From the NCBI GenBank assembly GCA_016840085.1, contig JAEOTA010000004.1, forward strand, positions 64,001 to 128,000: a stretch of 64,000 nucleotides of DNA. The letters run 5' to 3'. A program made the translations under genes and the position numbers. The number at the start of each line of letters is the position of its first letter. Within the stretch, counting starts at the first letter, position 1. This DNA comes from Promethearchaeota archaeon (GTDB taxonomy: Archaea > Asgardarchaeota > Lokiarchaeia > Sigyniarchaeales > SOKP01). The notes under the pieces are model-generated. The model saw only the letters and a list, made by a program, of their open reading frames with translations, ran no database searches and was not told the DNA's origin. Of the stretch, positions 1,785-5,495 are shown piece by piece.

Positions 1785-2963
1785 ATGAAAGCTGTAGAAT
1801 TATCTGCAAAATGGGATCCAAAACCAGATTTTAAACTTGGATCCAAAGATATAGAAGGAAAATTAACTTATTTAGGTTCTCAAGTATGGCGTAATCCTGT
1901 CGTTAAGGTACGAGAAAAAGATAAACCTCAAATTAAACCAAATGAAGTATTGGTTAAAGTAAAAAGGTGCGGAATTTGTGGCTCAGATGTCCATATGGCT
2001 CAAACATATGAAGATGGTTACATTTATTACCCTGGTTTGACAGCTTTTCCTGTCACTCTTGGACATGAGTTTGCTGGGGAGATTATAGAAGTTGGAAAAA
2101 AAGCAATTAATAAGAGAACTGGAAAACTTTATAAAACAGGAGAACCAGTCACAGTAGAAGAGATGGTTTGGTGTGGCGAATGTAAACCTTGTTGTGATGG
2201 GTTTCCAAATCACTGTGAAAGATTACAAGAAATAGGATTTTCTATTGATGGTGCATACGCTGAATTTATTGCTGTTCCAGCAAAATTATGTTGGAGTTTG
2301 AAGAAGTTAGAACAGAAATATGAAGATGTTTTTAAAATTGGCAGTTTAGTAGAACCAACTTCAGTAGCATATAACGCAGTTATAGAAAGAGGTGGTGGAA
2401 TTCGACCTGGTGAAAATGTCATTATATTAGGTGGAGGACCCATTGGCTTAGCAGCAACGAAGATTTTAAAAACTGCAGGAGCTGCTGTATGTATCGTTTC
2501 AGAACCAGAGGAGACTAGAGCTTCAATAGCTAAAAAATTAGGTGCTGACTATGTAATTAATCCCATTAAGGAAGATTTTGTTGAAAAAGTAAAAGAATAT
2601 ACTGATAACGAAGGAGCTACTCTCTATCTTGAAGCAACTGGATTACCAGATATTGTAACAGATGATATACAAAATACAATATGGGAATGTAAAACTGTTA
2701 ATAGTACAGTAGTTATTGTAGCAAGAGCAGAACAAAGAATGCCCGTTTGTGGAGAATATTTCCAAGTTAGGAGAGCTCGCATCGTTGGTTCTCAAGGGCA
2801 TTCTGGCCATGGTAATTTTCCAAACGTCATTAGTTGTATGGCCGCTGGCATGGATCTTATTCCGATGATTACAAAAGAGATAAGTCTTGATGAAGTCCCT
2901 GAAAATTTGAAATTATTACTATCCGATCGAGAAAATTGTAAAATATCTTCAGTAATAGGTTAA
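1785..2963 (+). CDS. iolM: scyllo-inosose 3-dehydrogenase (Zn-dependent MDR alcohol dehydrogenase)
   Basis: CGICGSDVH, GHEF, CxxCxxC..C structural Zn site, GGGPIG. The N-terminus AKWDPKPDFKLGxKDIEGKLTYLGS and GSQGHSGHG match the Thermotoga IolM type as I recall it. Confidence 0.88.
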   Translation: MKAVELSAKWDPKPDFKLGSKDIEGKLTYLGSQVWRNPVVKVREKDKPQIKPNEVLVKVKRCGICGSDVHMAQTYEDGYIYYPGLTAFPVTLGHEFAGEIIEVGKKAINKRTGKLYKTGEPVTVEEMVWCGECKPCCDGFPNHCERLQEIGFSIDGAYAEFIAVPAKLCWSLKKLEQKYEDVFKIGSLVEPTSVAYNAVIERGGGIRPGENVIILGGGPIGLAATKILKTAGAAVCIVSEPEETRASIAKKLGADYVINPIKEDFVEKVKEYTDNEGATLYLEATGLPDIVTDDIQNTIWECKTVNSTVVIVARAEQRMPVCGEYFQVRRARIVGSQGHSGHGNFPNVISCMAAGMDLIPMITKEISLDEVPENLKLLLSDRENCKISSVIG

Positions 2964-2988
2964 AAATGTAGTCAATAAAAATATTATA

Positions 2989-3006
2989 TTTTTTTTTTAA
3001 TTTTTT
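2989..3006 (+). terminator. oligo-T tract after iolM, putative archaeal terminator
   Basis: tttttttttt-aa-tttttt about 25 nt after the iolM stop, between convergent genes. Confidence 0.4.
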
Positions 3007-3015
3007 AAATAAAAC

Positions 3016-4431
3016 TTAAATCCTAGATCTTTTTAAAGAATTTCTCTTATTAAAGGGAGGAACCGAATTAATACAATTTTTAAAAACTTCTTTCATTAAA
3101 TTTTCACCTAAAGAGAGCATGAATGCTAGACCTTTACTACCATCTTTTCTAATAGTTTCTTTTTGACGAATTTCATATTTGATATCAAATTTTCCTTTAA
3201 TATCCTCTAAGAATTTTTTGCTCCCACTTGTTATAAGAGTTTTTCCTTTCGACCCATCTCCGTCCCAATAACCAAGTAAAAACCCTAAATATATATTTAA
3301 GCTTGCTTTTAACTCTGGTAATCTTATATTAGAAGATTTGTTTTTCCCAACTATAAAACCAAGATTTTTCAAGTGTTGTACAAATTTTTTGCTTTTAAAT
3401 TGAATCCTAATAGTGTCTTTAAATTCGAAATGCTCATCATAATTAAAATTAGAATCAATTATAGATACAATTCTAAAATGCGTAATTTTGTTAATTTTAT
3501 GTATATCAAAACCAATATCCTTAGCAAACTTCAGTATGAGGTCTTGTGCATCATTGGACATTTCAATACCGAATATAACTTGATTAGAGTTTTTATCTAG
3601 AGTCATATATCCATCAGCGAAGATTAGTCCTAACCAATAACCTTTTAGTACAGAATTAATATTTTTAAAGTAATCCTCATTAAATTCTGATTGATGTCTT
3701 AAAATACCTTGGTTTGATTTTGGTAAGTCATTGAATTCACGATAACGGCTAAAAATATCTATTATAGTTGTTAAATCTAAATCCTGAAGCTTTCTTATTA
3801 AATTGTTTTCAAATTCTTGTAAAACATTTTCTGAAAACAGATAATGAGGATTATTATGAATATCGTATATACGGTCAGTTATATATGCGTTATATTTTCC
3901 AATTAGTCTACTCAGTGAATAATTTGTAATTTCAATTGATGCCTCTCTAAAAGTGATTATCTTTGTAATTTTTCGTTTTAGTTGCTCAATAAATTTCAAC
4001 TGTTTACGAGGTGTAGTAAGTGTATTAAATAAATCTAAGCTATTCTTATAACTATAAGTTTCAATGAGATAGAAAATATTTTGACTTAATATTCCAAATC
4101 TTTGTTCTAAAGTTTTTTTCCATTTTTTTATTATTTTTTTTGAAATTTGAAAACTAGGATCATTATTAATTTTTAATTTTATATTTTGTGTAATATATTG
4201 ATCAGAATATCCCAATATTCGACTTAATTCTTTATCAGTTAATTTAATAGACACCAAGGAGAGATGTACTATTCTTTCGATTTCGTGTTTTAAATCGTAT
4301 ATAAAATCTATCGTATTATAGCTAATATGTCTAATAGGCTTCTCAGAAAATTTACTGCTGCCAAAATATTTCCATTTAGAATGAAATACAAAAAAATCGG
4401 GATCTTCTTGATTGGCAATAATCTTTAACAT
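3016..4431 (-). CDS. free-standing double-motif LAGLIDADG homing-endonuclease-like protein with a duplicated N-terminal helical/HTH-like module
   Basis: Motif 1 GYWLGLIFADG and motif 2 GFLLGYWDGDG, preceded by FNEDYFKNINS. No intein or intron context. Confidence 0.85.
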   Translation of the reverse strand: MLKIIANQEDPDFFVFHSKWKYFGSSKFSEKPIRHISYNTIDFIYDLKHEIERIVHLSLVSIKLTDKELSRILGYSDQYITQNIKLKINNDPSFQISKKIIKKWKKTLEQRFGILSQNIFYLIETYSYKNSLDLFNTLTTPRKQLKFIEQLKRKITKIITFREASIEITNYSLSRLIGKYNAYITDRIYDIHNNPHYLFSENVLQEFENNLIRKLQDLDLTTIIDIFSRYREFNDLPKSNQGILRHQSEFNEDYFKNINSVLKGYWLGLIFADGYMTLDKNSNQVIFGIEMSNDAQDLILKFAKDIGFDIHKINKITHFRIVSIIDSNFNYDEHFEFKDTIRIQFKSKKFVQHLKNLGFIVGKNKSSNIRLPELKASLNIYLGFLLGYWDGDGSKGKTLITSGSKKFLEDIKGKFDIKYEIRQKETIRKDGSKGLAFMLSLGENLMKEVFKNCINSVPPFNKRNSLKRSRI

Positions 4432-4591
4432 TTTCTCTTAAAACTTTTTAAATTTTTTTCAATTATCTCTAAAACTATAGATTTTTAACCTAAAAAGCCG
4501 TGATTTAATTTTACAATCTCTCTCTTTTTATTAGATTCATTTTCGTGTATTATTAGTTATAATTTGCTTATGAATTTAAAAGAAAAGACTG

Positions 4592-4625
4592 TAAAATATT
4601 AGTAAAAAATAAAATATTAGTAAAA
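4592..4625. repeat. 16-bp direct repeat TAAAATATTAGTAAAA x2
   Basis: Copies at 4592-4607 and 4610-4625, upstream of the endonuclease gene near the element junction; AT-rich. Confidence 0.45.
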
Positions 4626-4664
4626 CGATCACAAATTTGCCCCTATAGTGATAAAAGAAATAAC

Positions 4665-4772
4665 ATGACCCCAATGATAACAAAAGAAATCTCACTTGAC
4701 AAAGTTCCCGAAAATCTTATACTTTTACAAATCGATAAGGAACAATGTAAAATTTCAATCAAACTTAGTTAA
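4665..4772 (+). pseudogene. orphan duplicate of the iolM 3' end (35 codons, MTPMITKEISLDKVPENLILLQIDKEQCKISIKLS*)
   Basis: 23/33 aa identical to the iolM C-terminus PMITKEISLDEVPENLKLLLSDRENCKISSVIG, same length and stop position. Confidence 0.9.
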
Positions 4773-4901: not shown

Positions 4902-5495
4902 ATGAATGAAAATCATAATGAGGAAGAAGATATTGAATTAAATGAAGAAGTTGAAAGCGATAAACAAATTCTTGAAAATAAAAAAAAACAAGAAGAAATT
5001 GCTATAAAAAGAAGAGAGGTTTCTGATTTTAAAACTGAACATCCAGAATCTCTCGAAATTAGCGAAAGTGAACCTTTTTATAGAGCTCCATTAACTAATA
5101 TTATAGAAGGCGAAGATGTATATTATATTCTCGTTGAATTACCAGGATTAAATAAAAAAAATGTAAAAATTTCTTTACAAGAAGGAATCTTAGAACTAGT
5201 TGGAGAAAAAGCAATAAAAGAGAAAGAAAAAAAAGACGAGAAGAAGGAGAAAGATAAAAAAGAAAAAAAAGATGAAAAGAAAGAAAAAGACAAGAAAAAA
5301 GAAAAAATAAAGGAAATTAAAGGGGACTTTTTAAGGAGAGAATTTCGAGTAGCTAACTTCTATAGATGCTTTCAGTTACCTGAAGATGTATCCACTGAAG
5401 ATATTGATGCAAATTTTAAAAATGGTGTTCTACAATTAAAAATGATTAAAAAGACTGCTAAATTAAGAGAAAAGAAACTGATAGAAATCAAATAA
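4902..5495 (+). CDS. Hsp20/alpha-crystallin small heat-shock protein with Lys/Glu/Asp low-complexity insert
   Basis: VELPGL..V.I....LEL.GE and F.R.FQLPEDV....I.A.FKNGVL motifs, C-terminal IEIK. Confidence 0.9.
   Translation: MNENHNEEEDIELNEEVESDKQILENKKKQEEIAIKRREVSDFKTEHPESLEISESEPFYRAPLTNIIEGEDVYYILVELPGLNKKNVKISLQEGILELVGEKAIKEKEKKDEKKEKDKKEKKDEKKEKDKKKEKIKEIKGDFLRREFRVANFYRCFQLPEDVSTEDIDANFKNGVLQLKMIKKTAKLREKKLIEIK

Follow-up and report, generated by a model that had tools for sequence, protein, structure and literature searches.

The gene iolM of a Promethearchaeota archaeon carries a foreign 3′ end, followed by an antisense LAGLIDADG endonuclease gene and then by a displaced copy of its own former end. 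We analysed this locus within a window of 64,000 nucleotides (nt), i.e., positions 64,001–128,000 of the forward strand of contig JAEOTA010000004.1 (assembly GCA_016840085.1), starting from a sequence-only reading that had proposed a homing element here. The observation is real and represents a new archaeal variant of 3′-replacement homing elements. Judged from sequence, the locus probably holds an intron-less, intein-less element of the yeast WHO type that homes into iolM by means of its own enzyme. The unit consists of a replacement iolM 3′ end, the LAGLIDADG gene and a short iolM fragment. Comparison of the locus with relatives shows that the resident tail was displaced, that the working tail is foreign, that the catalytic core is intact in sequence, and that sister elements moved with their own tails into the same site in different genera. 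The features of the locus are as follows (window coordinates; aa, amino acids).

1785–2963, + strand: iolM, scyllo-inosose 3-dehydrogenase, 392 aa; NCBIfam NF041097 above cut-off
2798–2963, + strand: foreign tract in the working iolM (co-converted region plus replacement tail); left edge about 2798–2822
2844–2870, + strand: candidate recoded target region; 6 of 27 bases unlike the empty allele
2862–2963, + strand: replacement (element-borne) tail, 33 codons plus stop; best match among other alleles 80% nt
3016–4431, − strand: free-standing double-motif LAGLIDADG endonuclease gene, 471 aa; Pfam PF14528; convergent with iolM
3253–3279, − strand: LAGLIDADG motif 2, LLGYWDGDG, putative catalytic Asp392; (nearly) invariant alignment columns
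3610–3636, − strand: LAGLIDADG motif 1, WLGLIFADG, putative catalytic Asp273 by sequence reading; acidic residue kept across homologues
3727–4320, − strand: N-terminal all-helical region of two similar repeats of ~100 aa, helix-turn-helix (HTH)-like by eye, from the internal repeat and the model
4432–4662, no strand: AT-rich spacer, 21% GC, presumed endonuclease promoter; without iolM homology
4663–4772, + strand: orphan, the displaced resident iolM 3′ end and presumed right homology arm; matches the tail and downstream DNA of the closest genome
4902–5495, + strand: hsp20 (Pfam HSP20); directly after the iolM stop in empty alleles

Resident and foreign ends of iolM

iolM is clustered with iolO and iolN, and its product scores 501 bits against the NCBIfam IolM model (cut-off, 450). 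We reproduced the arrangement described earlier: the LAGLIDADG gene lies antisense between two iolM tails (2862–2963 and 4671–4772), each of 33 codons plus TAA, which share 23 of 33 residues and 67% nt identity, with 12 of the 23 identical residues encoded by different codons in the working tail and the orphan. Searches of the genome with tblastn located iolM tail matches at these two places only, and a genome-wide scan with shuffled tails returned no orphan-like match, which excludes a chance origin of the pair. Homology of the orphan begins at about 4663–4665, at the AC-ATG-ACC that had been noted ahead of it.

Of 161 genomes of the class, 74 possess iolM, and the gene was also recovered at 77 metagenome loci. 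The closest genome (G103) has an element-free iolM whose body is ~95% identical to the window at the nt level. The tail of this allele resembles the orphan (93% identical, 31/33 aa) more closely than the working tail (69%), and runs on into the same intergenic DNA and hsp20 as the orphan; this iolM–hsp20 synteny is found in G103 and in most same-genus relatives examined. Because the element-free tail matches the orphan and enters hsp20, the orphan must be the resident end that was pushed aside, and it is the working end that came from elsewhere. Both the proposed identity of the orphan and the suggested check on element-free relatives, which carry the orphan-type tail leading into hsp20, are thereby borne out. 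A recent tandem duplication, already dismissed in the sequence-only reading, is ruled out by the 12 synonymous differences and because relatives agree with the orphan rather than with the working tail; a deleted paralog as source of the orphan is ruled out by the G103 synteny.

Divergence from G103 rises along the gene, from 2.5% before 2797 to 15% in 2797–2861 and 30% in 2862–2963. Across 2797–2861 G103 and two other relatives agree at 95%–97%, which identifies the window as the one with the foreign sequence there. The best change point for the left edge is at 2822 and the first difference at 2798. The earlier claim of a foreign replacement end at 2862–2963 therefore stands in kind and shifts in extent, the foreign part starting at ~2798–2822. 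Between the left crossover and the orphan start, ~35–60 nt of resident iolM are missing. The ratio of nonsynonymous to synonymous substitution rates (dN/dS) is 0.11–0.14 for the foreign tract, with dS >1, and 0.14 for the replacement tail against the G103 tail; the tract thus evolved as coding sequence, with mostly synonymous differences. By these comparisons iolM is a chimera of a resident body and a foreign 3′ end. No donor of the working tail was found among >100 iolM alleles (best, 80% nt). At codon 359 (2859–2861), where the orphan begins, ACT is changed to ATT, turning Thr to Ile; of 104 sequences, only the window has Ile at this residue, while 85 have Thr and 15 Ser.

Two neighbouring genes deserve mention on their own account. 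In hsp20 (4902–5495), the alpha-crystallin domain is interrupted midway by a long low-complexity insertion rich in Lys, Glu and Asp. The MFS gene upstream of iolM (235–1668) is 67% identical to its G103 counterpart and 91% to that of genome G080, unlike iolM, hsp20 and iolO, which are 93%–97% identical to G103; this points to a separate allele swap at the MFS gene.

The endonuclease and its proposed homing cycle

The product of the open reading frame (ORF) at 3016–4431 matches Pfam LAGLIDADG_3 (E = 3.4e-9). Asp273 and Asp392 are kept in the two motifs and conserved across 41 homologues. Its predicted structure has a mean predicted local distance difference test score of 79 (>90 across most of the core). 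The best fold match is the TliVMA intein endonuclease (Z = 15.7; root-mean-square deviation 3.2, 169 aligned), and PI-PfuI (Z = 14.7), I-Tsp061I (Z = 14.1), I-DmoI (Z = 13.1), I-SceI and WhiA (Z = 9–11) were also matched. The N-terminal 240 residues are helical in the model and contain an internal repeat (39% over 44 aa), for which no convincing fold match was obtained. Pfam detected no Hint or splicing domain in the protein, and a C-terminal zinc finger is absent, the chain stopping just past the nuclease core with a single Cys. Sequence and model together indicate a member of the LAGLIDADG superfamily whose nuclease core has intact predicted catalytic residues. A weak Pfam RuvC_1 match lay below cut-off and was not taken as real.

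Under the favoured reading, the enzyme would cut element-free iolM within 2796–2870, likeliest near codons 357–360. Occupied and empty copies would have to meet in one cell, presumably through the transfer of DNA or the fusion of cells, as happens in other archaea, and the break would be repaired from the occupied copy, using the iolM body as the left arm and the iolM fragment as the right arm. Repair would restore a full-length, chimeric iolM and strand the recipient's tail downstream, and the recoded site in the chimeric gene may resist further cutting, conferring self-immunity.

Other mobile-DNA architectures fit the locus poorly. An intein or homing intron was rejected, as iolM is uninterrupted and neither a Hint domain (Pfam) nor an intron family (Rfam) was found; the Rfam search of the locus gave a single chance match. 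An integrase-driven island with attL/attR in the 3′ end would call for a recombinase and an identical core repeat at both ends, but the endonuclease is the only ORF >75 aa, and the ends are 67%–71% identical. Single-crossover (Campbell) integration of a circle is disfavoured, the foreign tract starting upstream of the orphan start. Terminal inverted repeats or a transposon signature were not seen at the element beyond AT-rich chance matches, and a promoter and terminator scan of the locus stayed at chance level.

Sister elements at other host genes

Homologues of the endonuclease occur in 71 of the 161 genomes; named records with homologous endonucleases are mostly Promethearchaeota (Lokiarchaeia), several being contigs of the class-level relatives already searched. 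The check on homologues suggested in the sequence-only reading came out in its favour, as such genes lie between repeated gene ends at further host genes too. A displaced tail across the LAGLIDADG gene was detected at 12 of 80 fetched homologous loci (none in shuffles; compare 17 of 3068 genes across the present genome), spanning six host genes: acyl-CoA synthetase (4), SNF2 helicase (2), a phosphoglucomutase-like gene (2), radical SAM (2), P-type ATPase (1) and DegT aminotransferase (1). Besides this set, Dam methylase is a seventh host gene with a duplicated end, so that at least seven genes other than iolM are affected. Endonuclease clades track host genes, each clade having its own gene, in a quick tree with a long branch for the window. 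The endonucleases are under purifying selection, dN/dS being 0.16–0.28 in diverged pairs. None of the 80 loci holds a tRNA gene, and no displaced tail was seen at 74 viral loci with distant homologues.

Spread is best documented at the SNF2 gene. Among 31 alleles, the 28 in which no endonuclease was found 0.5–1.5 kb downstream have one common tail type. A different, atypical tail is shared by two occupied alleles that belong to different genera (70% identical; Shimodaira–Hasegawa-like approximate likelihood-ratio support, 100). The bodies of these two alleles are 60% identical, and a single clade for them is rejected (approximately unbiased (AU) test, p = 0.00016). Both orphans cluster with the empty alleles of the genus in which they lie (85%–86%) and start at a conserved helicase motif. 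A third occupied allele has neither the atypical tail nor a detectable orphan. The shared tail, conflicting bodies and own-genus orphans together indicate that endonuclease and tail travel together into a fixed site, a behaviour predicted by homing and not by passive capture. From these alignments and trees, the same endonuclease with its atypical tail invaded two genera separately, which shows horizontal, site-specific spread. The separate histories of body and tail proposed earlier hold for iolM by nt identity and for SNF2 by trees and the AU test. At the radical SAM gene, 30 alleles of the genus were fetched, 1 of which has an endonuclease within 1.5 kb; a residue absent from empty alleles is common to two occupied ones that belong to different genera.

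The family also contains a 5′-end variant, seen at two loci that repeat the start of a gene. One is on contig C37 of the present genome (29205–35533, partly locus L239), where a 446-aa gene is preceded by a paralogous LAGLIDADG gene that is split by TGA. Two more copies of the 5′ end of the 446-aa gene lie farther upstream, one of them together with the final 39 codons of a different endonuclease. This layout reads as a stacked 5′-end-swapping variant with an older endonuclease remnant. Relic fragments are single at the iolM locus, and two are stacked both at an acyl-CoA synthetase locus (L085) and on C37. Further fragments matching the C-terminal part of the family lie on C32 (24124–24351) and C85 (36862–36993) of this genome, and related LAGLIDADG genes occupy the iolO–iolN gap without tail duplication in L061 (6063–7727) and L062 (4149–5636).

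Comparison with known homing systems

The closest precedent, which the sequence-only reading missed, is the WHO elements of the yeasts Torulaspora and Lachancea; these home into FBA1, replace its 3′ end and leave a downstream fragment as homology region (PMC7282813). A 2026 preprint treats WHO as a third, much rarer category of homing element, does not mention archaea, and reports an unusual residue at the target, a change at codon 226 (10.64898/2026.08.13.744650). The likeness is extensive: a free-standing double-LAGLIDADG gene directly behind a chromosomal metabolic gene with no splicing, an element-borne replacement 3′ end with the recipient's old end left downstream as a fragment, and differing histories of gene body and 3′ part. 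Stacked relics, known from WHO and seen in relatives of the present element, may be a further likeness, with a single fragment at iolM itself. The unique Thr359Ile of iolM at the orphan start parallels the codon-226 change. The systems differ in that the host is an archaeon and the gene iolM, rather than FBA1 of budding yeasts; the archaeal protein has N-terminal helical repeats instead of a C-terminal zinc finger in an HO-like organisation; and ~35–55 codons are replaced here, compared with half the gene in WHO. Moreover, the archaeal family sits at many host genes, one clade each, and includes 5′-end-swapping variants, whereas WHO is found at FBA1 alone.

The precedent that had been cited, C-terminus replacement in fungal mitochondria, does share the anatomy. 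Mobile endonuclease ORFs (mORFs) with a foreign C-terminus are known from atp6 of Allomyces macrogynus and from atp6, atp9, cox2 and nad3 of Glomus (PMC3630166). There too, a LAGLIDADG gene separates the foreign C-terminus that was inserted from the native one that was displaced, and the native end is nearer to relatives (91% vs 63.5% in mORFs (PMC3630166), 93% vs 69% here). mORFs are organellar, are transcribed together with the host gene and frequently share its reading phase, while the archaeal ORF is antisense and convergent on a chromosomal contig. The element works like WHO and mORFs and is a member of neither, given its zinc finger status, host gene, orientation and domain of life. Archaeal intein and intron LAGLIDADG enzymes (PI-PfuI, TliVMA, I-DmoI, I-Tsp061I) supply the closest solved folds (Z = 13–16) but come with a splicing domain or intron, both lacking here, where the host gene is restored by replacement and not by splicing. 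The free-standing Seg and Mob endonucleases of phage T4 (intronless homing, e.g., mobE) are likewise free-standing, and protection is expected to come from sequence differences in a neighbouring gene (PMC2790892); the phage systems differ in having no displaced tail, in keeping with the viral loci above. No description of such elements in Asgard archaea was found in the literature searched, the coverage of which was incomplete.

Tail swaps and hairpin insertions

Curation of the 3068 genes of this genome recovered 17 tail-swap insertions, whose cargo is mostly transporters, serA, toxin–antitoxin genes and membrane proteins. Among these are, apart from the iolM locus, about 15 displaced-tail inserts with ordinary cargo, on contigs C4, C5, C6, C11, C19, C35, C40, C43, C46, C82, C83 and C85; the C85 insert holds DUF4238 genes and a protein that is GIY-YIG-like by eye only. 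On C19 (37536–42222; L240, upstream of the window), an ahcY tail swap carries an ABC transporter. This cassette otherwise looks nuclease-free, yet an antisense, decayed piece of the endonuclease family lies 16–150 nt behind the stop (E = 2e-5), a relic that, on sequence match, speaks against a purely generic origin of tail swaps.

iolM itself is the target of a second, unrelated tail-swap cassette (L064, 3318–6684; L206, 620–3862), which encodes a multi-HTH protein of 722–727 aa with a weakly PD-(D/E)XK-like end and an unknown gene. A matching empty, intron-less allele is present in L026/L079. In L068 (2417–3404), an iolM tail swap contains only an unknown 260-aa gene, a cargo in common with L064.

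Hairpin insertions of 28–30 nt, with an in-frame stop or frameshift, interrupt the iolM coding sequence at two sites.

Window-equivalent 2795/2796: L064, L068, L070, L071, L187, L206, L210, L218, L236, L237
Window-equivalent 1973–1987: L061, L065–L067, L069, L071, L075, L210, L236

Hand pairing of the 2796-site flanks yields a canonical bulge-helix-bulge, and the insertions are probably tRNA-type mRNA introns. All three alleles with the second-cassette swap have a 30-nt bulge-helix-bulge-like insertion at 2795/2796; the L206 orphan starts one codon past it, and the window's foreign tract also begins at this site. A 30-nt hairpin insertion with TAA, probably another mRNA intron, splits the acyl-CoA synthetase gene of L081–L085 at its WMMWNW motif.

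Competing explanations

Several observations count against homing by this enzyme at iolM. The sequence-only reading, which is otherwise supported overall, overlooked the many inserts that lack an intact nuclease: about 15 of the 17 carry ordinary cargo with no intact DNA nuclease. The endonuclease family is ~20-fold enriched in such inserts over genes in general, with related loci not being independent, but PIN genes occur in them as well (1 of 10), and an enrichment beyond that of accessory genes is therefore not established. About 68 of the 80 homologous loci have no detectable orphan. The iolM element is a singleton, its endonuclease having no relative above ~41% (closest, ~35%–41%), so that its own spread lacks demonstration. 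The foreign tract starts 35–60 nt left of the orphan start, compared with 5–14 bp in WHO6, and iolM, present in fewer than half of the genomes, is probably not essential. The many inserts with ordinary cargo lend some weight to generic one-sided recombination (homology-facilitated illegitimate recombination), whereby DNA of a distant Lokiarchaeon entered through a crossover in iolM and an illegitimate join on the other side, with the endonuclease as a passenger not targeting iolM; the cassette in L068 and the PIN gene agree with this. Such a process does not predict that one endonuclease clade, with a shared atypical tail, should occupy one and the same site in more than one genus, nor that the working tail should lack a close donor. 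In addition, the ahcY cassette retains a decayed family member in the same geometry, and the cargo of L068 also occurs in the nuclease-bearing L064. We therefore regard generic recombination as unlikely.

A real homing enzyme might instead have another target, through trans or collaborative homing or an ancestral site, the iolM swap being the work of an earlier element, such as the HTH-nuclease cassette, whose cargo was then replaced. The second cassette in L064 and L206 and the related genes in the iolO–iolN gap are compatible with this account. Against it, the endonuclease gene is the only cargo and abuts both working tail and orphan, and the window tail is 71%–73% nt identical to the tails of those cassettes and lacks their intron, which makes this history very improbable. 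Domestication as a non-mobile, WhiA-like DNA-binding regulator, in which case the orphan would stem from a paralog since deleted or from an old duplication in place, could draw on the WhiA fold match, on modelled N-terminal repeats that could bind DNA, and on purifying selection, equally expected of a protein that serves the host. The protein has retained its two acidic catalytic residues, however, the element is patchy (1 occupied of >100 iolM alleles), and the orphan is syntenic with, and 93% identical to, the resident tail of G103, which refutes the paralog; we give this explanation hardly any credence.

Implications

A broader picture, which we put forward tentatively and with somewhat more doubt than belief, is that splicing-free homing elements form a large and active family in Lokiarchaeia, in which every clade is tied to a conserved motif close to the end, or sometimes the start, of a different chromosomal gene; that these elements and their relics drive the common tail-swap gene-capture cassettes and spread together with tRNA-type mRNA introns; and that they are the prokaryotic counterpart of the class that gave rise to yeast HO. 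Homing of this kind may give genes a way to be captured and introns a way to spread, and would mean that alleles of different Lokiarchaeia genera often come into contact and undergo gene conversion. The findings also warn that gene ends in Lokiarchaeia have histories apart from those of gene bodies. The family would add dozens of new nucleases with long sites, their targets being legible in the orphan fragments, and for iolM the natural empty and occupied alleles are both known. If cleavage is confirmed, the WHO-type category would extend to prokaryotic chromosomes and to many host genes.

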